Origin: a virus
Lineage: Duplodnaviria; Caudoviricetes
Reading direction: 5' to 3' (one strand)
DNA length: 37,542 nt
IMG/VR virus record: IMGVR_UViG_3300020460_000027
Span: 1 to 37,542 of that record
The notes beneath the pieces are model-generated. The model ran no database searches, had not been told where the DNA came from, and was given only the letters and a program-made list of their open reading frames with translations. Shown in pieces: positions 497 through 37,542 of the stretch (positions within the stretch are counted from its first letter, which is position 1; every line of letters starts with the position of its first letter). The translations under genes and the position numbers were made by a program.

Positions 497-640
497 ATGG
501 GTTTTGCACAGTTGGGGAAAAGTTTGTGAACAAGTCAGAGCGTTTTTTTGTTGCGATAGTGTTGATAGTGACTTCGTTGTGTTTGGGGTTTCTGGTGTTG
601 GGATTGGGTCTGATATTACACTTGTTGTTTGGTTAGACGA

Positions 641-883
641 ATGAAGGTTTGGATTGACCAAGATTTGTGTACGGGTGACGGTCTTTGTGAGGAGTTGTGT
701 GGTGACATTTTTTATGGACATTCAGATGGGCTTTTTTATGTTAAAGAAGCAGGTTCTGAAACGCCTAAAGAGCCTACGCATAAGATGAGTGAAACAGTTG
801 ATGTGCCTGATGATTTGGCTGAAGCTGTTATCGAATCCGCTGAAGAATGTCCTGGTGAGTGTATTTTTGTGGAGGCAGATTGA
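641..883 (+). CDS. Ferredoxin, single-cluster actinobacterial type ([3Fe-4S]/[4Fe-4S])
   Basis: MKVWIDQDLCTGDGLCEELC...AEECPGECI = CxxDxxC...CP motif; ATG at 641. Confidence 0.92.
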   Translation: MKVWIDQDLCTGDGLCEELCGDIFYGHSDGLFYVKEAGSETPKEPTHKMSETVDVPDDLAEAVIESAEECPGECIFVEAD

Positions 884-5186: not shown

Positions 5187-8100
5187 TGGGGTTTTTTGAT
5201 CGGATAGGAAAACTTTGGGATGCTGGTTTTGAAGTTGGTCGCACCGCTGTTAATACTGTTGTTGATTTAGCTGAAGCTCCTTTCACTGAAGACGAATACG
5301 ATGGTTTTCTTGACACCATTTGGGGTGTCAGTAAAGATCGTGGTGTTGAGTTAATGCAACACACTATCGGTCCTGAAGGTGTCGGTGGTGTCCTAATTGG
5401 TGCTTTACCTAAACCTATTCGTGAAGGTGGCAATGTTGCTTTAGAAGGTTTGGAAACTGCTTATAGAGAAGCAATAGCTGAACCTATTAGCACGGTTGTG
5501 ACAATGGCTTCTTTAGGACAAGCTGAAGGAAGCGGTGGTTTTTTTGGTGACGATTGGGGAGTTTGGACTGATTCCGAAAAATGGAAACTAGCTTATAAAA
5601 TAGCTCAAGATCGTTCACCTGGACAAGCTGTAGCTTTAGCTTTTGCGACTGATGATATTCTTGATGACGAACAAGTTATGAAAGCTGAAAGTGAACAATG
5701 GTTTACTTATGTCAGCGGAACTTGGGATGCGGCTACTCGAATTTTTCTTTCTCCTGAGATTGTCGCCGGTGGTGGCGTTATGGCTGGTAGAGCGATTTCA
5801 AAACGAAATTCTTTTAACAATTATTTTAAAGAAGGCAGAGGTTTTTCAAAATTCTCTGATGACGTAGAAGAATTAGCTGTTACAACTGGGGCTAGAAACA
5901 CACGGAACAATCAACTTCTTTTAGACGAAAAAGACTTAGATGATTTTGCTGGAAAAATAAAAGAAAAATATTTTTTCGATCACCATGAAGGTGATGTTAT
6001 TTCTACTGAAATAGCCAGAGCAGTTATAGGCGGTGCTGAAACAGGATTTCAAGGTGGTAAAGAATCACTAGAAAATGTTATGCGTTTCTTTATGGGTGAC
6101 GCTTCTGCTATAAAAAACATTGAAAAACTTGAAGGAGCCGCTACCGCACACAGGTATCAGCAACTTTACAAGAACTCTAACCAAATTAAACAAAGCGTTC
6201 CTCCGGCATCTGTTGGTGGTCAAATGACTATTTTTGACGAAGCTCAAGATGGGACACTAACTTTAGCGCAAGGTTTAATTTCAGAAATGGATGATGCTCC
6301 TCATGTAATTAGAGCATTTGCTTCTATTGAAGAAGCTATTAAACCAACGATGAGAAAAAACTTTGTTCACAACGATAGAGTTCAACAGTTTTATAGATCG
6401 AATTGGACTATGGCACCTGTTCGTGTAGTTAGAGATATGCGCCCCCAGCATTTTGTTTGGGCTGGTGATGCTAACAGTGGTGAACAGGTAGCAAGGTTTA
6501 TGCGTGAAGCAGGTTTTGAAGCTGATGAAATAAGAAGGTTTCGTGGGCAATGGGCTAGAAGTGATATAGCTACGAGGGCTGAAGTTTTAGCTAGAACAGC
6601 TAACACTAAAGCGATTAGGAAAGTAGCTGAAAAGCATGTTAAACGCCCTAAGAACATGAGTAAAAAAGATTACGACAAAGAGATCACAAAATTTATAGAA
6701 GATTTTGAATATTCCCATGAGTCATTTGCGAAAGTTATGTCAGATGTCAGAAAGTATGATGCTGATAAAAACATAAGCACAATACATTTTAAAGATCCTG
6801 ATACTGGTATTGAAGAAATGCTTCAGGTTCCTTTAAACCCTTCTCAGCTTAAACAGTCTGTTGCTTTGGTTGATATCAAAAAAGTTGATAAAGCTATGAG
6901 GCGACAAGCATCAAAGATGCCAGATTTTATTTTTAAAGCAAATGACATTAGAGCGCAGAGCTTACATGAAATAATGAAACTTTGGCGACCAGCAGTTCTT
7001 CTTCGCCCTGCATGGGTAATGAGAGTTGTGGGTGACGAACAGTTGCGTATGTTTGCAAAAGTTGGAACAACTGAAAGAATGTGGAAACTTTTAAGCGAAG
7101 ACCGACCAAAGTATGTGCAAAAAGTTTTAGAAAATGCTCTTGTTAAAACTGGTGCAGTCACAATAAAAGGTGGCAAGGTTCAAATAGCTGGTTCTAAAAA
7201 ACTTACTGCTAGAAGAGCAGCGGTTACAGGTGGCATTGGATTGCTTGTAGCAGGACCAGTTGGTGCAGCTATAGGTGCGAGTGGTTCTTTAGCTAGAAAC
7301 ACTAGGGCGTTAAAACGGCTTAGGAAAACTTTAAGAATCAGAGAAGAAGCCAGAGTGTTATATGAAGGCGGTCAAGTAGCAAGAGCTAAAGAACTTTTAC
7401 AAGAAATAGGTGAAGGTCCACTAACTATAAGTAGAAGTACGGACATTCACGATTATGAGATAGCAGGTGCTTTTGGTGATGCGTTGGAACCAAATATTCT
7501 TGCGATGAAAGCTAATAGTGCTAATCGTACTTCAAGGTTTCTTTTAGGAAACACAGAAAAAGAAGTCTGGAATGAAGTGGATGAGATCATGGGCGATTGG
7601 ATGACTTATGAAGTTTCCGGTATAGGAACTTCCAAAGCCGCTGAAAAAAGATTTGGTGACTGGTGGGAAAGAGTTGTTAATGACCAATGGGCTAATAATC
7701 CTGTAGGCCAAATAGCTTTTAATCACAGGTTGGGTGATGCTTCCGTTAGGAAGCAAGCACTTATTGATTGGATGCACACTGATGCTGGTAAAGAGTTTGC
7801 TAAAAAAATTCCTAACAGAATAAAAAAAGATAAAAGTGGCAATCTTTTAACTGATGATATTGAAGATTGGGCTGAACAAGTTGTTCAAGCTACAGACAGA
7901 ATGGTTACAAACAAAGAAGTAGCTCAACTATTAGCTGATAGTCAAGGCAGTGTTCGTGTCACTCTTAAAGATCTTAAACGAATAGCTGAAAAAAATGGTG
8001 AAGATTGGAAACAGTATGTAGGTGATATTCATGGTCAACAAGGAATACAATTAGCTGATGATACTTTAAGAGCTAAAAAAGATCGTTTAGTTAATCGTCT

Positions 8101-12455: not shown

Positions 12456-14110
12456 TGGCATCAGATAATGAAATAACTTTTCAACCTATTTTTAAAGGAC
12501 AAAAAACCAACAACCCTGAAGAAATAGCTCGTTTAGCTTCTGAAGGGGCAGAGTATGACCATGACTTTTTAAGAAGTCGTGGCGGCAGTTGGCGAGATCC
12601 TTTTACTGGGGTGCAGATAGGACAAGCTGTTGATTGGACTGGCGTGTCTCAAATGGCAACAGTTGGAGCAGGTGGGCAACTTACAACAAGTCCCAATGTT
12701 CCTTTTGGTCATGTGATTGATCCAACTACAGGAGAATCTACAGGCACTTATCTTTCATGGGACAATGAAGGCAACAGGCTTGGTGACGTTATGGTTGCTG
12801 GTGATATTGTTAGTCCAGCTAAGGGAATGTCTGAAGAAGAGCTTTTAGATATTGCTGGTCGAGTGGCTATTGTTAATACTTTTCAGCAGGACCGTGTTGC
12901 TTTGATAGAGCAGTATGGTGATTACTTTTTAGAAGAAGTAGGCACAGATATTGTAGGTGGGTCTGTTAGTAAACTTGACGAGTTGCGTTTCAACTCTAGA
13001 GGCTATGATTTGTTGACAGGTGGGGTTCCTTCTTCTTACAGGGATGAAGATTATGTGTCTGTTGATGATGATGCGATGGCAGCAGTAGCAGGTAATTCAA
13101 TGTCTTTAGCAATGATGAAATCCAACCTTGAAGTTTATGGAACTTTAGTCGGTCCTTATGATGCACAATATCGTGAAGCGGCTGGAATGGTTACTTCTCA
13201 AAGTGCTGTAGGTTCAAGTGCTGTTGACATGGGAGCAAATGAATCAAGTGGAACGCCTGAGCAAACTTTTAGTCCTAATGAAACAGCCACAGGTATCCTT
13301 AGAAACACATTAAAAAATTATGGGTTAGAAAGTTTATTGAATGACAGTGCTTTAGATTTAGAAAATCTTTATGTTTCTCTTGATGACATGGATGCAGTAT
13401 GGGCAGCAGTAAGACAAAGTGCCACATACGCTACTCGTTTCCCAGGTATGGCAGGTTTATCAGCATTAGGTCGTGCGATTACTGAAGCTGAATACATTAC
13501 TTTAGAGACTTCTTACGCACAAACATTAAATGCGTATGGTATGCCTAAAACTTTTTATGATGGTCCAGAAGATTTTGGAAGTTTAATTGCTGGGGATGTT
13601 TCTCCTTCAGAGTTTGCTCAACGAGTTCAAACTGCATACGAAGCACAAAAATTAACCAGTCCAGAAGTTCGTACTGCTTTAACCGACTATTATCAAATTA
13701 CAGACGGTGATTTAACTGCCTATTATTTAGATCCGGAGAGAGCCACAAATATCTTTGAAGAACGTGAAAGATTAGGAACAGCCAAATTTAGTGCGATTGC
13801 TACCGAGTATGGTTCTCCTATCACACAACAAACCGCAGAAGCCTTACAGGAAGCTGGGTTTACTGAGACTCAAGCTCGTCGGGGATTCCAAAAAATAGCG
13901 CAGTCCACATTAGATGAAGAAACTGTTAGTGAACAGCTTCAAGGCGATGACATAACTTTTGACGACCTTACACAAGCAGAGTTCAACCTTGATCCGGAAG
14001 CTGCTCGTAGGTCAGAACAACGTCGTCAAAGACGATTAGCTGAGTTCAGCCAAACTGGTGGTCCTTTATTAACTCAAGGTGGTTATACAGGCTTGGGTTC
14101 AGCTAGGTAA
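12455..14110 (+). CDS. Hypothetical virion protein (putative internal/ejection protein)
   Basis: 551 aa, TAATG overlap; C-terminal RRQRRLAEF...GG motif. Confidence 0.6.
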   Translation: MASDNEITFQPIFKGQKTNNPEEIARLASEGAEYDHDFLRSRGGSWRDPFTGVQIGQAVDWTGVSQMATVGAGGQLTTSPNVPFGHVIDPTTGESTGTYLSWDNEGNRLGDVMVAGDIVSPAKGMSEEELLDIAGRVAIVNTFQQDRVALIEQYGDYFLEEVGTDIVGGSVSKLDELRFNSRGYDLLTGGVPSSYRDEDYVSVDDDAMAAVAGNSMSLAMMKSNLEVYGTLVGPYDAQYREAAGMVTSQSAVGSSAVDMGANESSGTPEQTFSPNETATGILRNTLKNYGLESLLNDSALDLENLYVSLDDMDAVWAAVRQSATYATRFPGMAGLSALGRAITEAEYITLETSYAQTLNAYGMPKTFYDGPEDFGSLIAGDVSPSEFAQRVQTAYEAQKLTSPEVRTALTDYYQITDGDLTAYYLDPERATNIFEERERLGTAKFSAIATEYGSPITQQTAEALQEAGFTETQARRGFQKIAQSTLDEETVSEQLQGDDITFDDLTQAEFNLDPEAARRSEQRRQRRLAEFSQTGGPLLTQGGYTGLGSAR

Positions 14111-14551
14111 CTTCGTAGTCCCTTTTCTAGCAGTAACAAATTCGTCAGCAAGCACAGTTTTAAAACCTAAATCGTGAATAAAAATTTTCACGTAGTTGTC
14201 TTCATAGCACTCAACTACAAATCCTACTGAGCGTTTAGTCCCAGCTTTACGTTTAAGTTGCACACGTATATTAGTTCCAGCTTTTAAAATTCGTTGACCT
14301 TCACGGCGTATCTCTTTGACAGTTGCACGTTCTTCTGTAGTTTTAGTTACCCAATTAGACATACATAGATTAAGATTATGTCGGATAGCTTCTTCGGTTG
14401 TTAAACGCTTCCCGTTTAGAACATAAGTTGTCCCAGCAGCTATAGATTTAGCTAAAGTGCAAAACCCACAAATATAATTTCCATATTTAGTTTTTCTTAA
14501 ACATGGAGGGTTATTTAATTCAGGGAATTTAGATAACACATTCTCATTCAT
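14099..14551 (-). CDS. Basic hypothetical protein inserted in opposite orientation; Cys cluster and possible SH3/KOW-like C-terminus
   Basis: ATG at 14551 preceded by ACGATTGGAGAA; C-x10-CxxC near the N-terminus. Confidence 0.75.
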   Translation of the reverse strand: MNENVLSKFPELNNPPCLRKTKYGNYICGFCTLAKSIAAGTTYVLNGKRLTTEEAIRHNLNLCMSNWVTKTTEERATVKEIRREGQRILKAGTNIRVQLKRKAGTKRSVGFVVECYEDNYVKIFIHDLGFKTVLADEFVTARKGTTKLPS

Positions 14552-14582
14552 TCTTCGATTCTCCAATCGTTGTTGTATAACT

Positions 14583-30515: not shown

Positions 30516-31073
30516 ATGACTTCTCTTTTGCTTGCCGTGATTGTTGCCGTGAACTCTATGGTTGTGATACCTGAGATAGTGGATCAAGAATATCGTATGT
30601 ATGAGCGTGGTTCTCATATCGTGGAGTTACAAAAAGAAATAGGTGGAGTTCAGGTTGATGGGATTTATGGACCGAAGACTAGAGCGAAACATATTGCTTC
30701 TGTTGGTGGTGGAGTAGCTGCTGTTTACAGGTGGTACGGGTTCACACCTTTAACGAACAACACTAAACCTTTAAGCGTTCTAATAGATGAGTATTTTAAA
30801 ACAGAATCAGATCGTCTATGGGCGACACGGGTTGCTTTCTGTGAATCGTCTGCTTTGCCGCATCATGTTCGCTCCACTGCTGTTTCACCTGCTCTAGCTG
30901 TCGGAGCTATGCAAAACCTTATGCGTTACTGGTCAAGCCGTGCCGTTTCAGCAGGTTTGTCGGCTGATGCTTCTCCTTACGATTTAGAAAATAACATAAG
31001 GGTAGCTGCACATTTGTTTTACACCTCAGGTAAACATCATTGGAATCCTTCTAAGAAATGTTGGGGGAAATAA
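30516..31073 (+). CDS. Secreted/anchored lytic transglycosylase-like protein with PG-binding motif
   Basis: Hydrophobic N-terminus, LQ...VDGIYGPKT, catalytic-like VAFCESS, GAMQ, ENNIRVAAHL, HW. Confidence 0.7.
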   Translation: MTSLLLAVIVAVNSMVVIPEIVDQEYRMYERGSHIVELQKEIGGVQVDGIYGPKTRAKHIASVGGGVAAVYRWYGFTPLTNNTKPLSVLIDEYFKTESDRLWATRVAFCESSALPHHVRSTAVSPALAVGAMQNLMRYWSSRAVSAGLSADASPYDLENNIRVAAHLFYTSGKHHWNPSKKCWGK

Positions 31074-31075
31074 TA

Positions 31076-31831
31076 ATGCAACAAGCTCACCAAAAAATTG
31101 TTAGAGAAAAAATGAAAACAGAAGATTCTTTCAATCTGTTTGGTGACTGGTGGGAAGACATAGAAGTAGACATTAAAAAAGCAGTTGTTAAACCGATTGA
31201 TTACAAGACGGCTGCGAGTGTGATTATCAAGTATGAGTGGCTTGGTTGTATGCCTGCGATGGTTAAGTATTGTTTCGGTATTTACTTTGACGGCAATCTA
31301 GGTGGCGCTGTTGTTTACAGCACGGAATATATAGAGAACTTAGGTAAGTGGGATAAGTACGATTACACAGGCAAGATCATTCTCTTATCAAGGGGCGCTT
31401 GTGTTCATTGGGCTCATCCTCATAGTGCCAGCAAACTAATAACAAGTTCGATGAAAATGCTCCCTGAGAAATACAAAGTCGTGACTGCTACTGTCGATGA
31501 ACACGCTGGCGAGATAGGAACTATCTATCAAGCCTGCAACTTTGTTTATATAGGTTCTATGCGAGACAACAATCCAAATGTGAACAGCAGAAAAGATGAC
31601 AGGTTTGGAGTTGAGATTGACGGCAAGTTATATACCGCTCGCTCCATGAGGCAGAAGGTCGGTTCACAAAAAAAGGAAGACATTTTAAATGTTTATCCTC
31701 ACGCCGTGTTTGTACCTCAAGCTAGTAAGAAAAGGTACTTTTATTTTCTTGGGAATAAGAAAGAGAGACAATACCACCGGAGTCAAATAGAAGATCAAAT
31801 TCAACCGTACCCAAAAAGAGATTTGTTATGA
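31076..31831 (+). CDS. Mom-like DNA modification protein (GNAT fold)
   Basis: IIKYEWLG...FGIYFDGNLGGAVVY...LSRGAC...ASKLI...GEIGTIYQACNFVYIG...KKRYFYFL. Confidence 0.75.
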   Translation: MQQAHQKIVREKMKTEDSFNLFGDWWEDIEVDIKKAVVKPIDYKTAASVIIKYEWLGCMPAMVKYCFGIYFDGNLGGAVVYSTEYIENLGKWDKYDYTGKIILLSRGACVHWAHPHSASKLITSSMKMLPEKYKVVTATVDEHAGEIGTIYQACNFVYIGSMRDNNPNVNSRKDDRFGVEIDGKLYTARSMRQKVGSQKKEDILNVYPHAVFVPQASKKRYFYFLGNKKERQYHRSQIEDQIQPYPKRDLL

Positions 31832-32139
31832 GTCCTGAAGAAGTCGAAGAGATTCTTTTTACGATGACTGCTATTTGGACTCAGAAAATAAACGACCCTA
31901 CGTTAATGGTTTGGAAGGAACTGTTAGCTCCAGAAGACCGTTCTAAAGTTAGAGCAGCTATCAAACAATTAGCTGATACCAGTAAATATTTTCCTGCATG
32001 GTCAGAGGTTAAAGAAATTGTAGAGCTTTTAAAACGTCAAGAAAGAGAAGCACCTAAAGCTATTGAAGCTGGGAGTTATTTATCACACAAAGAAAATCTA
32101 GAACGATTAAAGGAAATCAAAAAGCTTAGAAGTATGTGA
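31828..32139 (+). CDS. Putative helicase loader/inhibitor (G39P-like)
   Basis: VWKELL...VRAAIKQLADTSKYFPAWSEV pattern. Confidence 0.5.
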   Translation: MSPEEVEEILFTMTAIWTQKINDPTLMVWKELLAPEDRSKVRAAIKQLADTSKYFPAWSEVKEIVELLKRQEREAPKAIEAGSYLSHKENLERLKEIKKLRSM

Positions 32140-32165
32140 GTAAATGTTGCTCTTGCATGATATGA

Positions 32166-32210
32166 TTTTGTTTATACACATTTCACTCCAATCGTTTTGT
32201 GTAAACAAAA
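32166..32210 (+). ncRNA. Candidate antisense hairpin RNA presenting CUCCAAUCGU (complement of the early-gene RBS motif)
   Basis: 13-bp stem 32166-32178/32198-32210 (U-G pair valid only on +); loop contains CTCCAATCGT at 32186-32195. Confidence 0.5.
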
Positions 32211-32236
32211 AACCCCCCGATTATGGGGGGTTTTTT
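32207..32236. terminator. Bidirectional intrinsic terminator between convergent operons
   Basis: AAAAAA-CCCCCC-GATTAT-GGGGGG-TTTTTT. Confidence 0.9.
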
Positions 32237-32257
32237 ACTTGGGTTGACAGTCCTAGA

Positions 32258-33205
32258 TTATGCGGCTTTACGTTTTAGTCGCCGTATCTCAGCTTTGAGT
32301 TCAGCAACTTCTTCCCGTAGGGCTTTGACCCTACAAGCTTCTGCATTGTTTTCTTTGTACGAAATGCTTTCCAAATGGTCAATGTTCACACACGCTCTTT
32401 CCCCACAGATATGGTGTATCTGGTTTCCTTCAGGGATAGTTTCGTTGTTGGCTACTTCCCAGACTTTTCGATGGGTAGCAATCCGAGTCAACCCTTCTCC
32501 ATCTTTCGCTATGCAAATAGACCCGTAACCTGATTCCATTTTGGTGTGTTGCCAAACTAAACAACCGTTGTTGTTTGGCTTCACGTACCCATTTTGAGGA
32601 TCTAAATAGAAAGCAATAGTTTCAGTCCAGTCTAAATGAAACAAAGTAGGGCGTAACTTTCTACCTGCTTCAAAAGTTTTATTTTTGTACCATCTTGCCC
32701 CATGTCCCTGACAAATCTCACCGTATTCGATTGATTTTGGGTCAAACTTTGAAGGATCTTTAAGCCCTACATATCCTTTGTCTGTGACTCGACCACATGG
32801 GGTTCCTTTGGAATCTATAGGCACCATGCAAGTGCTGTTGCGAGGTAAGGATTGAACTAACGGAACATCAGGGTACGTGTCTCCGTATTTGTCTAATCGT
32901 TTAGCATGACCACGACAATGATCGTCAGTCTGTGTTCTTTGTTTAAATGAACAGCCCTTAACTATGCAGTTTTTATATTGTTGTTCTTTAATCAGTAGGG
33001 TTTTGCTACCCAGACAGCAACGCCGATTCTGATGTTTCTTAGCAGCACGTTGAGCGTTACCAAGTGTTGCATATCTTGGTTCCCCACAGCGAGCGCACTT
33101 CACATGCAAGGGTATTTGCGAATCTCCACTGTATGGCTCTAGTGGAATATATTCACATGCTCGCATTATCTTGTCGGCTTCTTCTACTGTATGTTTATTC
33201 GGCAT
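32258..33205 (-). CDS. HNH endonuclease with Cys/His-rich N-terminal domains
   Basis: CLVWQ...GYG...THRKVW...IHHICGERACVNIDHL...ENN; several Cys/His zinc-knuckle motifs upstream. Confidence 0.88.
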   Translation of the reverse strand: MPNKHTVEEADKIMRACEYIPLEPYSGDSQIPLHVKCARCGEPRYATLGNAQRAAKKHQNRRCCLGSKTLLIKEQQYKNCIVKGCSFKQRTQTDDHCRGHAKRLDKYGDTYPDVPLVQSLPRNSTCMVPIDSKGTPCGRVTDKGYVGLKDPSKFDPKSIEYGEICQGHGARWYKNKTFEAGRKLRPTLFHLDWTETIAFYLDPQNGYVKPNNNGCLVWQHTKMESGYGSICIAKDGEGLTRIATHRKVWEVANNETIPEGNQIHHICGERACVNIDHLESISYKENNAEACRVKALREEVAELKAEIRRLKRKAA

Positions 33206-33699
33206 TACGCTATCTCCATCTTCGGAGCTTGTTTAGCACGACTGTTTTTCAAGTGAGCATCAACTTCAGGATCGTCGTCGCCTATGTCGTAACGAACATT
33301 ACGTTCTTGAAAACCGACAGGTATCTGTGAGTCTTTAGTCCATACCCATAAATGGTACTCGTTAGCTGTATCAACAACTCTAGACTCAGCAGGATAAAGC
33401 TCAAGTGCTTCACGCTCGTCACCAAAAATGTCGTTTTTAATCTGCTGGAAATGTCGCCAAGGTCGATTCGTTGCCCGTGTATGAGAGTGAATACACATTT
33501 GGCAAATACCATCACGACCTAACTCTTTGTTTAAGTATCTGATTGTTGCCTGATACCTGTCGTTTATCCAAACTTCGTCAGGCATGTCACCATGAAACTT
33601 ATCTTTTATTTTTTCATAGATGTTATCGTCAGCTAGTTGAGCGGCTTGCATACGCATCCAAGCCTTAGCTTTAGTTGGGGCTTTACGTTTCTTACCCAT
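33205..33699 (-). CDS. Hypothetical early protein
   Basis: ATG 33699 after ACGATTGGAGAA; WRHFQQIKNDIFG...ELYPAESRVVDTANEYHLW. Confidence 0.8.
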   Translation of the reverse strand: MGKKRKAPTKAKAWMRMQAAQLADDNIYEKIKDKFHGDMPDEVWINDRYQATIRYLNKELGRDGICQMCIHSHTRATNRPWRHFQQIKNDIFGDEREALELYPAESRVVDTANEYHLWVWTKDSQIPVGFQERNVRYDIGDDDPEVDAHLKNSRAKQAPKMEIA

Positions 33700-33717
33700 T
33701 GTTTTATTCTCCAATCG

Positions 33718-33778
33718 TGGTCTGTCTCATCAGTATGTGGTGACCAATCCACATAGACACCCTTACGGGTGTTTCAAC
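33718..33778 (-). ncRNA. Type II hammerhead ribozyme HHR-A (cut between 33756 and 33755)
   Basis: GUU-GAAAC-ACCC-GUAA-GGGU-GUC^UAUGUGG-AUUGGUCA-CCACAUA-CUGAUGA-GAC-AGACCA; pseudoknot UGGUC/GACCA. Confidence 0.88.
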
Positions 33779-34004
33779 TAGCTTTCCTTCCGGTTTCAAG
33801 TAACCATTTTTCAACGTCAGCTTTAAGGAAAAAAACTAACCCCCATCTTCTAATAACTGAAGAAGGAAAATCATTACTGTTAATCCAGTAAGTAATATTT
33901 GATTTATGCACCCCTTCTTTTTTTGCTATATCTGACAAGGTGATTAACTCCGATAAACGGTAATCGTTTATATTTATTTCAGGTCGAGGAGGAACTAATT
34001 GCAT
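33774..34004 (-). CDS. AlpA/excisionase-like HTH protein
   Basis: LITLSDIAKKEGVHKSNITYW...DFP...FLKADVEKWL; GGAG SD. Confidence 0.75.
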   Translation of the reverse strand: MQLVPPRPEININDYRLSELITLSDIAKKEGVHKSNITYWINSNDFPSSVIRRWGLVFFLKADVEKWLLETGRKAS

Positions 34005-34413
34005 CTTCTCCACCCCCTGTCACGAAAGTACCAACATTGACGTTGACAACATCTTGAGTCATTTCACGAACATGCTCATCGTGTCCGTTTACTTTGTATT
34101 CAAGGTCGGCGTAAAATCTTTGAACGACTTTCCATTTGCGTGAAGCTTTAGAAATCACGTAAGTACCGTTGTCGCCATTGTCGTAATCAAGGTTTTTGAT
34201 TACATCAACGTAAACGCTTGAATTGCCTCCGAACCAGTTGCCTATCATTTGAATGAACCTTGCAGGCTCGTTGACACCCAAAGCTGATGCCGCTTGACAA
34301 AAAGCTTCAATGGACTCAATACCACCGTTCCAATGAAGGTAAATGCCTACCTGTGATGTATCCAAAATGCTCTCAGATGAATCTTGAAAACTTATTACCG
34401 CTCTATTTCCCAT
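33979..34413 (-). CDS. Hypothetical early protein
   Basis: MGNRAVI...GIYLHWNGG...DNGTYVI; AGGAG SD. Confidence 0.8.
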   Translation of the reverse strand: MGNRAVISFQDSSESILDTSQVGIYLHWNGGIESIEAFCQAASALGVNEPARFIQMIGNWFGGNSSVYVDVIKNLDYDNGDNGTYVISKASRKWKVVQRFYADLEYKVNGHDEHVREMTQDVVNVNVGTFVTGGGEDAISSSST

Positions 34414-34753
34414 GATTGTTCTCCTTTCGTTCTGTCATAGATATAACTGGTCTAGGTGAATTGATAATTTCTTTTTTAACAATCTCATCTCTAACTTTGT
34501 AAATGTTTACACAACACTTCCTTAAAGAAAGATCGATTTCTTCTAACTCTTGAAGCCATAAAGCAAAACGTGGTTTCAAGTCTTCCCAAGCTTGATCTCT
34601 TGTTACAGATAAAGCCGACAGGATAGCGTCGTCTCTAAAATAAGGATGACATTTTATAGAAGCCTCGACACTTGTCTCTAAGTGTTTAGCATTTATTAGT
34701 ATTTCTTTTAGCCGCTCGGTTATTCCGGCGACTGGTTCAAATGGTTCTATCAT
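34403..34753 (-). CDS. Hypothetical early protein
   Basis: ATG 34753 after ATGATTGGAGAA. Confidence 0.75.
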   Translation of the reverse strand: MIEPFEPVAGITERLKEILINAKHLETSVEASIKCHPYFRDDAILSALSVTRDQAWEDLKPRFALWLQELEEIDLSLRKCCVNIYKVRDEIVKKEIINSPRPVISMTERKENNHGK

Positions 34754-34772
34754 TTGTATTTCTCCAATCATT

Positions 34773-34834
34773 TGGTCTATCTCTTCAGCGTTAAGAGACC
34801 ATCCTTAACGGACACTCCGAAGAGTGTTTCGATA
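34773..34834 (-). ncRNA. Type II hammerhead ribozyme HHR-B (cut between 34811 and 34810)
   Basis: UAUC-GAAAC-ACUC-UUCG-GAGU-GUC^CGUUAAG-GAUGGUCU-CUUAACG-CUGAAGA-GAUA-GACCA. Confidence 0.93.
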
Positions 34835-34987
34835 TTATTTACAAACCGGCGCTATTAGTTCCGGATCGGTTGTATCAGGACAAAACGGTTCATAATTTTT
34901 TGGGTCGTCAATCCATGCAACTATCATTAAACATGAGATAAGCAACCCAATATAAACACGCTCTTTTAATGTCAACTTATTAGTCAT
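34835..34987 (-). CDS. Small membrane protein
   Basis: MTNKLTLKERVYIGLLISCLMIVAWID; GAGGAG SD. Confidence 0.65.
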   Translation of the reverse strand: MTNKLTLKERVYIGLLISCLMIVAWIDDPKNYEPFCPDTTDPELIAPVCK

Positions 34988-35291
34988 TTTCAAACTCCTC
35001 TCTAAGCTGCCATGTAGTTCTCTTGTGCCATTTGTGTTCAAATAGTCCAAGCTCTATCAATTTATTACCGGCTTGATTAAGTCGTTCTATAGCGTGACTT
35101 AATCGAGTGTTTTCTGGGTTATAAATATGTCCCATGTTGTGAGCGTCATCGAGATAAATGCACATAGTTTGATCGTGCTGTGCATCGAGAAACTCTCTAA
35201 CGTAAAACAATATTTTTGTATCCTGTCCGGAATCAAATTTTAGAATTGCTTCTTGGCAATCTCCGGATATACCCTCTAAAACTAATTTCAT
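34980..35291 (-). CDS. Hypothetical early protein
   Basis: 103 aa; GGGAG SD. Confidence 0.7.
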   Translation of the reverse strand: MKLVLEGISGDCQEAILKFDSGQDTKILFYVREFLDAQHDQTMCIYLDDAHNMGHIYNPENTRLSHAIERLNQAGNKLIELGLFEHKWHKRTTWQLREEFEND

Positions 35292-35330
35292 TTTATTCTC
35301 CCTCTCTTTTCTTGTGCTTCTGTCATTGTT

Positions 35331-35498
35331 TTATTCGCCATATTCACACGCTCCGCAGATGTAATCCGCTGTGTAGATATTGCCGACATAAACACCATGC
35401 CTGCAATAATCTTTGTCAGGGATCGGTTCGACATCACTATCTAACACTTGACCTGTTCTAGCCTCTCTAAGTATTTCCTCTACTGACAATTCAGCCAT
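35331..35498 (-). CDS. Small putative zinc-binding protein (55 aa)
   Basis: ATG 35498 after ACGATTGGAGAA; CRHG...CGACE. Confidence 0.75.
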   Translation of the reverse strand: MAELSVEEILREARTGQVLDSDVEPIPDKDYCRHGVYVGNIYTADYICGACEYGE

Positions 35499-35514
35499 TA
35501 GTTTTCTCCAATCG

Positions 35515-35575
35515 TGGTCTATCTCTTCAGTGACTAGAGACCATCCTAGCCAGACACCCTTACGGGTGTTTCGAT
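35515..35575 (-). ncRNA. Type II hammerhead ribozyme HHR-C (cut between 35553 and 35552)
   Basis: AUC-GAAAC-ACCC-GUAA-GGGU-GUC^UGGCUAG-GAUGGUCU-CUAGUCA-CUGAAGA-GAU-AGACCA. Confidence 0.93.
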
Positions 35576-36000
35576 TAGTTCGTGTAAAGAGTTTCAAAAG
35601 GAAATGTCTCTTGAAAATAATCTCTAAGCCATACCGCCCAATCAAGATGTGTAATATCTCTTCTAGCGTTATCAAACCAATCTTTATAAACAAACTCTAT
35701 TTTTCCGAGTGTGCATATACCATATTGCATGTTGAAAGTTTTAGGGTAAAAACGGATCTCTTCAGAAGGTCCGCCCCAAGAGATCAGATATTTAAGATAG
35801 GGTAGCTCCCCTTCTTTAATCTCTTGCCAATCTAGAGACAAACCGTACTCATGGAATCTAGTAGTAGCGTCGTCTTGCTCGACGATCATATCGCTAGACT
35901 CCATGCCCTCGATCATGTCCTGAAAGTCTTCGCCCCTGCTTACGATTGCGTCGTCGATAACGGCTTCGCAATTTACAGTTAGCCCGTTTGATTTATTCAT
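35575..36000 (-). CDS. Hypothetical acidic early protein
   Basis: EYGLSLD...YLISWGGPSEEIRF...YKDWFD; ACGATTGGAG upstream. Confidence 0.8.
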   Translation of the reverse strand: MNKSNGLTVNCEAVIDDAIVSRGEDFQDMIEGMESSDMIVEQDDATTRFHEYGLSLDWQEIKEGELPYLKYLISWGGPSEEIRFYPKTFNMQYGICTLGKIEFVYKDWFDNARRDITHLDWAVWLRDYFQETFPFETLYTN

Positions 36001-36017
36001 TGTTATTTCTCCAATCG

Positions 36018-36077
36018 TGGTCTATCTCATCAGTAGCTAGAGACCATCCTAGCCAGACGCTCTAAGAGCGTTTCGAT
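36018..36077 (-). ncRNA. Type II hammerhead ribozyme HHR-D (cut between 36056 and 36055)
   Basis: AUC-GAAAC-GCUC-UUA-GAGC-GUC^UGGCUAG-GAUGGUCU-CUAGCUA-CUGAUGA-GAU-AGACCA. Confidence 0.92.
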
Positions 36078-37100
36078 TTAGGCAACCTCCTTTAATGCTA
36101 CGGCTTCGTAAGATGACTCCTGAGCGTCTTCGTAGCCTTCAGAAGCTCCGACCCCTTCCATCTTGTCTAAAATGTAACTCGCTGCTTTCTGGGCATCCGT
36201 TCCGGCTTTCCAAAGTAGCTGGGCTCCATCTTCACCCTCTAACGCTCTTATCCAACTTTTAAGATAAGAAGCGTGATTATCTAGCGGCTGATGCTCGACA
36301 CCTAAAACGTTAGCTAGAAACACTCCGCAGAGTTCAGCTATTAGCTCTTCAAACGCATATTTAGCGTCACCGAAACGACCTTCTAAATCTCTATTAAGAC
36401 GGCTTTCGTATCCTGACCAGTGACCAAATTCATGCCCTACAGTAGAGACCCATTCTGAGAGGCTAATAAATTGGTCAGCTATCGGGGTTATGATTTTATC
36501 TTGCGAAGGGATAAAGCAGGCTCTATCGCCGCCGTTCTCCTCTTTCCAATTAGCTCCTACTTTAAGGAACTCTGACCGGATCTTTTCAACCTGCTCATCA
36601 TTTGTTAATTCGGTCTCCTCGACTCTTACAGGCAGTGAAGGATGCTCTGGTTTTTCACCCTCTAACGCCTCGACTTGTGAAGCATTAAAAACGGTATAAG
36701 TACGCTCTAACAAAACCTTTTTCATTTTGTGGTTTTCTTTGCAAGTCTTCCCAATATTAAAAAGACCTTTACAAGGTGTCTCCTCGTTGCAAACCATCTT
36801 AGGAGCCCAATAAATAATCTCGGTTCCTCGCTCGCCCTTCTGAACTTGGCAGCCTTTACTTTGCCACTGTTTGTAAGTAGCAAACCGCCCATCCTCCCAG
36901 CCTTCACAACTCTTAGCCATACTCAAGACTAAAACGTTAGAACCCTTATAGATAGTCTTCGTAATTGGGTTATGCGGAACCTCGAAACCGTGGACAGCTA
37001 CCCAAGATTTGGTCCAACTTTTAGGATTGTTTTTAAGTAACTCAATAAGGTTTTCGGTTAGTCCCTGAGCTACTTTCCTAACCTTCTCATTTGTAAACAT
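36078..37100 (-). CDS. ardC: ArdC-like antirestriction protein (ssDNA-binding N-domain plus zincin-like domain)
   Basis: W.KSW, NPITKTIYKGSN, FATYKQW...QVQKGE, TVFNASQ, HEFGHWSG..SRLNR, YAFEELIAE, HASYLKSW. Confidence 0.9.
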   Translation of the reverse strand: MFTNEKVRKVAQGLTENLIELLKNNPKSWTKSWVAVHGFEVPHNPITKTIYKGSNVLVLSMAKSCEGWEDGRFATYKQWQSKGCQVQKGERGTEIIYWAPKMVCNEETPCKGLFNIGKTCKENHKMKKVLLERTYTVFNASQVEALEGEKPEHPSLPVRVEETELTNDEQVEKIRSEFLKVGANWKEENGGDRACFIPSQDKIITPIADQFISLSEWVSTVGHEFGHWSGYESRLNRDLEGRFGDAKYAFEELIAELCGVFLANVLGVEHQPLDNHASYLKSWIRALEGEDGAQLLWKAGTDAQKAASYILDKMEGVGASEGYEDAQESSYEAVALKEVA

Positions 37101-37131
37101 TTAACTACTCCAATCGTTAATATTTTTGATT

Positions 37132-37158
37132 ACCCTACCAGGTTATACGAGTGTTCAA
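37132..37158 (-). promoter_or_regulatory. Possible early promoter (TTGAAC...TGG-TAGGGT)
   Basis: Extended -10-like TGn TAnnnT upstream of ardC; spacer to TTGAAC is only 15 nt. Confidence 0.35.
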
Positions 37159-37461
37159 AAAAACAACAACACCGGCGAAAAATTTCTTATTACCCTGACT
37201 CCCTACCCGTCAAAAACCCCATAACAAAAACCCAGAAGCCCAGAAAAAAAACCTAGAAAAAAAACAAAACCAAACCCAGAAATCGATCAAGTCTCGCCGT
37301 AATTGCGTCGTGCGAGTAGCTCGAAACATCGACCAACGGGAGATGTGGCGAGATACCGCACGCACGCACGATGATTAACGGTGTATTTGTGACTTTGCTT
37401 CTAGTGTTTTGGTTGTTTTTGTTGTGTTGTTTTGTGTGGTGTTTGTTTGGTCTTGTGGGGG

Positions 37462-37542
37462 GAGGTGGGGGTGGGGGTTTTTTTTGTTTGGTTGGTGGTT
37501 TTTGTGGTTTGGTATCCCCTGGGACTCCCTCCGTCGATTGAG
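37462..37542. repeat. Terminal overlap (copy 2)
   Basis: Matches 1-82 except for one G. Confidence 0.95.

Follow-up and report, generated by a model that had tools for sequence, protein, structure and literature searches.

The 118-nt gap on which two opposing gene blocks of an uncultured tailed phage converge probably encodes a trans-acting antisense RNA of about 64-70 nt (32166-32236, plus strand) that would block translation of the early genes, as judged from its sequence and its complementarity to early leaders. The element is a real, non-random and partly conserved candidate regulatory RNA. The window, meaning the whole stretch of 37,542 nucleotides analysed here, is a 37.5-kb record, 97% complete, with terminase, portal and capsid genes and no close isolated phage (best terminase match, 27% identity). 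A rightward replication block (Cas4-like nuclease, SSB, RusA, two WhiB-like genes, Mom and a helicase-loader-like gene) and a leftward block (32258-37100), of which ardC (36078-37100, minus strand; ArdcN and MPTase-PolyVal domains) is the first gene, flank the gap; we call them middle and early, labels that follow from position and gene content. WhiB is described as a mark of actinobacterial hosts (PMC3861242), and the two WhiB-like genes point to an actinobacterium as the host of this phage. The last middle gene, the helicase-loader-like 31828..32139 (plus strand; phrog_2289 E 5.7e-4; PF11417 E 0.003, below its cut-off), has homologues in relatives and provided a syntenic marker.

Two strain contigs span the element (31000-32261 and 31000-32272, with 6 and 8 differing letters). 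These come from a set of three sequencing runs, all of one study, for 31500-37200; none of the three is listed as RNA, a result that speaks neither for nor against transcription. One strain contig skips the HNH gene at 32257-33195, across a joint with only 26 letters on its short side, and in others early genes are missing or exchanged; these differences mark the early block as modular. At the other end of the genome, a small cysteine-rich ORF before the terminase (629-883, plus strand), called ferredoxin-like by inspection and without a PHROG match, is 98% identical in close relatives. Non-coding motifs are also kept between the early block and the terminase (37520-37542 and 1-200 in the window, and in L013, L119, L133, L118 and L122): CCCTCCG..TTGAGG and GCCCYTYTRACGGGCGARC (88 matches in viral contigs), flanked by C/A-rich and G/T-rich tracts, are possibly packaging or terminus signals, or structured RNA.

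Folding and a terminator scan bore out the architecture described in the first-pass annotation, a 13-bp hairpin with a 19-nt loop just ahead of a bidirectional terminator. The seed hairpin (32166..32210, plus strand) pairs 32166-32178 with 32198-32210 through 13 pairs, one of them a U-G at 32175/32201, and leaves open the loop CAUUUCACUCCAAUCGUUU (32179..32197), within which lies the seed ACUCCAAUCGUU (32185-32196). One of these pairs is missing from the RNAfold structure (12 of 13 drawn), since the outer A competes with the tract of the intrinsic-terminator-like hairpin (32207..32236), which could act on both strands between the converging middle (plus) and early (minus) operons. On the plus strand, 32158-32236 folds at -26.2 kcal/mol (z -3.95; equalled by 0 of 200 shuffles). 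That the stem favours the plus strand, as had been claimed from the U-G pair, is confirmed by the hairpin alone, with z of -3.25 on plus versus -0.74 on minus. Opening the loop would cost 0.4-1.5 kcal/mol, and the seed is open in both forms of the RNA considered below. Across the element, an Rfam search at E<=1 gave a sole match, Phe_leader, at 36.4 bits against a cut-off of 55, on the terminator.

The extended -10-like box reported earlier, TG-A-TATGAT, can be read directly at 32158..32166 (plus strand) and is a predicted promoter without a -35. A sigma-70 scan did not list it, and was uninformative, returning fewer sites than in shuffles. Box spacing and the terminator together predict a small RNA of about 64 nt (32173..32236, plus strand). 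With a start 6-7 nt past TATGAT (32173-4), the box lies so near the hairpin that the transcript would keep only a 6-bp stem (-4.3 kcal/mol); the 13-bp stem would thus need a 3'UTR-derived form, predicted to start further 5'.

A motif search upheld the earlier observation that CUCCAAUCGU in the loop is perfectly complementary to ACGAUUGGAG at five minus-strand starts (14561, 33709, 35506, 36009 and 37108; loop copy at 32186), with a one-mismatch copy at a sixth, 34762, where a C>U change keeps the pairing as G-U. The 12-nt identity between 32185-32196 and 37107-37118 in the ardC leader, also noted before, is visible in the letters themselves. Allowing up to one mismatch, the DNA motif ACGATTGGAG has 8 matches in the window versus 1.67 expected (0 of 100 shuffles reach 8), including an intragenic copy at 5550 (plus strand), whilst the seven copies in leaders and loop all share one orientation on the DNA and the six leader copies, all on the minus strand, lie 7-9 nt before an ATG. 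By chance, an exact 10-mer would turn up 0.013 times in a shuffled window and about 4e-5 times within the junction gap, where even the 8-mer CTCCAATC occurs in 0.08% of shuffled gaps. Terminator-adjacent hairpins are common, and one lineage (L290/G003) lacks the element, as would suit a mere stabilising or pausing structure that matches the leaders by chance; that expected count, the excess of the motif over shuffles and the cognate signal in relatives described below make this explanation very unlikely.

The motif stands at the head of each of the five early units and of one isolated gene, 14099-14551. The claim that the targets are early genes therefore stands for five of six starts, the remaining exact start lying within the structural module. 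Complementarity runs to 10-18 bp with six leaders lying 1.5-18 kb away, all on the minus strand. At ardC (37107..37118) there are 12 contiguous base pairs, 8 of them outside GGAG, with further pairing over the AUG, where the 5' CAUUU of the loop is predicted to pair with AAAUG (-18.5 kcal/mol). Two sites directly 3' of hammerhead ribozymes lie in the leaders of 35575-36000 (36009..36018) and 35331-35498 (35506..35515); others lie in the leaders of 34403-34753 (34762..34771, the copy with the G-U pair) and of the DUF7694 gene 33205-33699 (33709..33718; the gene itself on the minus strand). The best pairing of all leaders is that of the isolated gene (14561..14578; 18 bp with one bulge, -23.1 kcal/mol; rank 1 of 51). 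This gene (minus strand; weak DUF1677 match below cut-off) is missing at the matching place in G001, the closest relative, and has its own extended -10-like box, TG-A-TACAAT.

When both strands of the window were scanned with the loop, its own opposite strand excluded, the six tagged leaders ranked 1, 4, 6, 7, 8 and 10. By net cofold energy in the promoter form, the top 6 of the 51 called leaders are all on the minus strand and five carry the motif, the tagged leader of the gene ending at 36000 being tied 7th; in the 3'UTR form, two rightward leaders (14778 and 19946) are also among the top 6. The same ranking for G001 puts its best early leader no higher than 6th of 48. Overlap with the preceding gene is seen in four of the five untagged early genes (gaps -1 to -26; the fifth, +39), so translational coupling, and with it an indirect shut-off, is likely for these four. 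Upstream of ardC, a predicted early promoter carries the -10 box TG-G-TAGGGT (37132..37140, minus strand), and the hexamer TAGGGT also precedes the junction hairpin in L101, L133 and L187.

Read on its minus strand, the element is similar to the ardC start for about 30 nt and to the 14551 leader for 18-19 nt, which makes an origin by duplication likely. Conceivably, then, an early-gene start was duplicated with its leader and first codons, and the loop copy is a relic or by-product of that event, with a 24-codon ORF left behind and no regulatory role; the family readily duplicates leader cassettes, as in its hammerhead-RBS repeats and the repeated leaders of L295. That ORF does follow the minus-strand motif copy (32107..32181, ATG at 32181, 4 nt after GGAG), so the earlier statement that no substantial gene follows needs this qualification. 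It holds in that the ORF is not conserved, varying from 0 to 52 codons in relatives and absent in L133 and L187. The ORF also sits behind the minus-strand terminator, with a spacer of just 4 nt, and a relic would not be expected to recur in six lineages of unrelated sequence at one syntenic place, behind a plus-strand box and inside a hairpin loop. We therefore hold a functionless relic to be improbable. Duplication may well have supplied the seed, and the unconserved ORF and the syntenic recurrence argue for later recruitment over a leftover.

To place the element in its family, relatives were gathered with a terminase profile (80 viral, 80 metagenome and 7 genome loci), and more were added through a helicase-loader pattern, a RusA alignment and the terminus motif, whose scan gave 88 loci, 80 with flanks, and added only L234 as a usable junction. 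Single-protein searches for close relatives returned only a second record of the same phage and one distant ArdC. Eleven lineages have a convergent junction and at least part of the early block, with terminase identity of 77-97% where seen. In 10 of these, the last rightward gene is followed by a TAnnnT box, a hairpin about 6 nt further on and a terminator, separate in some and fused with the loop in others; the boxes were chosen by eye, against a background density of 0.0015-0.019 per nt, and in L122, L295 and L187 the stem starts a few nucleotides further from the box. L290/G003 has no evident junction element and was counted as the miss. Apart from the pair L122/L295, the elements share no sequence beyond background, yet the plus strand gives the more stable fold in 22 of 24 (related elements included and the window counted twice) and G-U pairs lie mostly on that strand. 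MAFFT and RNAalifold gave no consensus structure for the seven two-hairpin elements. Left out of the matrices below were L234 and L186 (near-copies of L133 and G002), L188 (no early region) and L286/L294/L308/L313 (no clear junction element; records ending near or before the junction). Tandem TGTCG repeats lie beside the junction element and near early promoters in some relatives (L175:14550-14590, L177:236-260, L101:3298-3325, L119:2300-2330) and are absent at the window's junction.

The loop and adjacent stem bases of five relatives complement their own early leaders outside the Shine-Dalgarno (SD) core. The L133 loop GUGGUUCCU matches the leaders AGGAACCAC, AGGAACCCC and AGGAGCCCCC; that of G002, GGACUACCUUCC, makes 11 of 12 pairs with GGGAGGUAGCCC; G001 pairs AAACCUCCUU with AAGGGGGUUU through G-U; L101 sets GGGGUG against CACCCC; and L119 sets CUUUCAUU against AAUGAAAG. 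The fit is thus lineage-specific in six of ten lineages, the window included, whilst the other four (G005, L122, L295 and L187) carry generic anti-SD loops of the type CUC(C)UUU, without preference for their own leaders; with their own leaders these reach ranks 4-10 in the majority of loop-only measures (3-5 for L295).

Partners were swapped among the 10 lineages in permutation tests, in which seeds comprised the 5' loop plus 3-4 nt and leaders were called automatically, with starts taken from a rough home-made caller. Over four measures, unrestricted permutation gave p of 0.0005-0.010 and GC-stratified permutation p of 0.002-0.084 (33, 64, 407 and 1205 of 14400), the best-energy measure being the one at 0.084. 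Without the window, the stratified values were 0.011-0.056 (31, 52, 140 and 160 of 2880), two of the four at about 0.05. Cognate leaders ranked 1-3 for six lineages in all four measures. Cofolding of the whole RNA with structure costs gave 5-10 of 14400 permutations (3 of 2880 without the window) and an early top leader in 7 of 10 cognate versus 36 of 90 swapped pairs; in L122 and L187, however, the 70-nt windows used reach beyond the terminator, where repeats in the flanks may make the fit look better than it is. By the same whole-RNA cofold, the window's RNA pairs with the best leaders of G001 and L122 no worse than with its own, and a Mann-Whitney comparison of early against other leaders was significant in two of ten lineages (the window and L101). 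Generic SD content confounds the seed-shuffle tests (Fisher p 3e-5 to 2e-3), which were not relied on. The leader GATTGGAG is family-wide, heading 15 of 413 GGAG starts, 10 of them outside the window; no matching loop was seen in the lineages of these 10. The terminator of a distant relative (L299:7338-7369) contains UCCAAUCG, the same seed as the window, and no matching leader was found within the part of that record searched.

The first-pass annotation had reasoned that the loop should track the early ribosome-binding motif in relatives. It does so to a moderate degree, with the layout kept in 10 of 11 lineages and cognate pairing above swapped pairing, and we regard loop-leader co-variation as real and of moderate strength, but as carried by few lineages. 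For the proposed small RNA that would shut off early translation, this tracking is the part that fared well, and the generic loops in four of ten lineages are the part that did not.

The generic loops bring a second candidate function into view, in which the RNA is real and acts as a general anti-SD decoy damping many SD-led mRNAs, those of the host included, the match to ACGAUUGGAG being local tuning. More distant records (about 65% terminase identity) bear on this, since in them a hairpin follows a gene homologous to 31828, or occupies the matching position, and the loop contains CCUUU in 8 of 8 records. Their stems are different in each and fully paired, with swapped arms pairing only 53-64%; an RNAalifold run on a MAFFT alignment of seven showed two-sided changes at 7 of 15 pairs and many broken pairs. 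Many distant records, among those listed, lack such a loop at the junction. The anti-SD sequence CCUCCU continues as UUCU in 16S rRNA, and the CCUUU loops of the distant group resemble this stretch. Such comparisons favour an anti-leader loop that is exposed at this locus family-wide and has its role at the RNA level, and they equally feed the decoy explanation. CU-rich, anti-SD-like loops occur in four of ten close lineages, which show no cognate preference, as well as in these eight distant records (the 16S anti-SD being given as CCUCCU in PMC12274833), and similar loops lie on the late strand of 11 distant records. A purely generic decoy is at odds with the 8 of 12 ardC pairs that lie outside GGAG and with the six of ten lineages that pair through non-SD bases specific to their own leaders; we consider it unlikely.

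The late-strand loops belong to a second strong hairpin, apparently placed after the capsid gene (L364:18208-18294, L370:595-681, L405:12059-12145 and eight more distant records) and not present in the window. Its near-invariant loop, UU(UU)CCCCCUUUC, is complementary to leaders of the GAAAGGGG type, and it may be a late anti-SD RNA.

The shared motif could also be read at the DNA level, with ACGATTGGAG as an asymmetric, stoperator-like operator for a phage protein, for example the product of the HTH gene 33774-34004, and the copy at 32186 acting on the nearby plus-strand promoter or on read-through. The single orientation of the seven leader and loop copies would suit an operator, an HTH_17/AlpA-like gene is indeed present (Pfam match below cut-off), and for the start-associated sequences (SAS) of cluster K mycobacteriophages the choice between RNA and protein binding was left open in the account of Pope et al. 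(PMC3203893). As DNA, however, the matches in relatives are imperfect and some are G-U-compatible (G001, G002 and the 34762 copy), the junction copy sits in a loop whose stem favours the plus strand, and the HTH gene found a match only in L119 among the close relatives searched. An operator seems to us quite improbable, and an antisense RNA the better reading of the motif.

Four type II hammerhead ribozymes on the minus strand, all above the RF02276 gathering score of 37, split the early block into five units (36016..36078, 52.4 bits; 35513..35576, 49.9 bits; 34771..34834, 49.8 bits; 33716..33779, 44.7 bits), and the tag stands at the first gene of each unit. Four of the tags belong to a hammerhead-leader cassette that is repeated, and do not count as independent; the tags of ardC and 14551 lack a hammerhead and their flanks differ, so the duplicated cassette alone does not account for them. 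Within the hammerhead at 34771-34834, strain contigs carry 34816 T>C and 34823 A>G, compensatory changes in a stem (34810-34829).

The RNA-only circuit with these ribozymes, which the small RNA was proposed to complete, is not a conserved feature. Hammerheads above the cut-off occur in one of 50 records, a second record of the same phage, and in 0 of the 49 others, whilst the hairpin is present in relatives that lack them; the small RNA is therefore independent of the hammerheads, and any circuit with them is at most specific to the window's lineage. None was found in L122, L295, L228, L290 or L234, and a search for the hammerhead-plus-tag pattern matched the window phage only. A looser hammerhead pattern gave 108 loci, among which, for the 80 listed, multiple matches were confined to the window phage. 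Other viral contigs do have a type II hammerhead above the cut-off, one each (L429, L431, L503, L464, L474, L496 and L426, the last without a junction), and in three of them it adjoins an ArdC homologue. In L122 (1000-1060) and L295 (15690-16960), repeated, structured-looking cassettes without an Rfam match lie between early genes, where the window has its hammerheads.

Taken as an antisense RNA, the element would work as follows. Either the extended -10 box of the element would drive the small RNA, or the middle transcript would supply it as its 3' end; the RNA would accumulate once the replication operon is on. Its seed would then pair in vivo with ACGAUUGGAG, covering the SD and, for ardC, extending over the AUG, so that ribosome loading would be blocked and ArdC and the other early products turned down, with untagged overlapping genes shut off indirectly through translational coupling. 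In the window phage only, hammerheads would cut the early message into separate units, each still tagged. A broader scheme, an RNA-only lytic timing switch in which hammerhead-cut, tagged units are silenced by one small RNA from the replication operon, with tag and seed co-evolving across a large aquatic actinophage family, we put forward tentatively, as less likely than not; such a switch could grow into an early-middle-late cascade if the late-strand anti-SD hairpins of distant members belong to it.

The closest functional parallel is the c4 antisense RNA of phages P1 and P7 (Rfam c4, RF01695; PMC2864571), described as an RNase P-processed RNA with three stem-loops and two seed loops (a' and b') that takes part in lysogenic immunity (PMC5320573). 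Like c4 as there described, the window RNA is a small phage RNA with an exposed loop complementary to a ribosome-binding site and adjacent bases that give specificity, its action in trans being predicted, and loop and target differ together between phages. It differs in having one seed loop plus a terminator and no Rfam match, in its six targets heading a whole gene class, and in a genome whose 49 scanned ORFs gave no match to an integrase of the phage's own. By analogy, the RNA would work like P1 c4 and is not a c4 member.

The leader tag recalls the SAS of cluster K mycobacteriophages, asymmetric repeats just before non-structural gene starts (consensus GGGATAGGAGCCC, 11-19 copies) that embed the SD core together with conserved bases not pairing with 16S rRNA (PMC3203893, PMC12699233). 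Some K1 genomes have a single SAS copy in opposite orientation away from any start (Pope et al. 2011, PMC3203893). The window tag is likewise an asymmetric, SD-containing repeat before starts in one orientation; its sequence, ACGATTGGAG, differs by eye from the SAS consensus, and it has a candidate RNA partner that varies with the tag, whereas the SAS accounts cited name none. OppZ and CarZ of Vibrio cholerae are 3'UTR-derived, RNase E-made autoregulatory sRNAs (Hoyos et al. 2020, PMC7398697). A small RNA from an operon 3' end that blocks translation by base-pairing is likewise predicted here, with the differences that the repressed operon would be a different, earlier one, and that the RNA possibly has its own promoter. 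The phage antisense RNAs sar (P22), OOP and aQ (lambda) are described as serving lysis-lysogeny control with one target each, aQ being proposed to act in cis (PMC12197685); the window RNA would likewise govern phage genes by base pairing, but at several distant targets. For the context of those targets, an Agrobacterium phage-like region has multiple type II hammerheads flanking ardA in a polycistronic RNA (PMC3088659), similar to their placement around an anti-restriction gene here, and that description, in the portion bearing on this point, mentions no antisense partner.

Of the general traits of trans-acting sRNAs, the window shows a terminator, a -10 box without a -35 that recurs in 10 of 11 lineages, and an accessible seed that varies with its targets, with cognate preference in six of ten lineages. 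A title-level literature search found no description of the element or of a multi-target sRNA that shuts off early genes; the supplements of PMC2864571 (c4, c4-a1b1) and a supplementary table of PMC12197685 may bear on novelty. The natural loop-leader pairs of the window, L133, G002 and G001 offer orthogonal sets for reporter assays. If the antisense reading is true, it would provide a testable answer to the purpose of start-associated repeats in actinophages. Ultimately, a multi-target RNA acting on a common leader tag to silence the whole early class would add to the ways in which a lytic programme can be timed.
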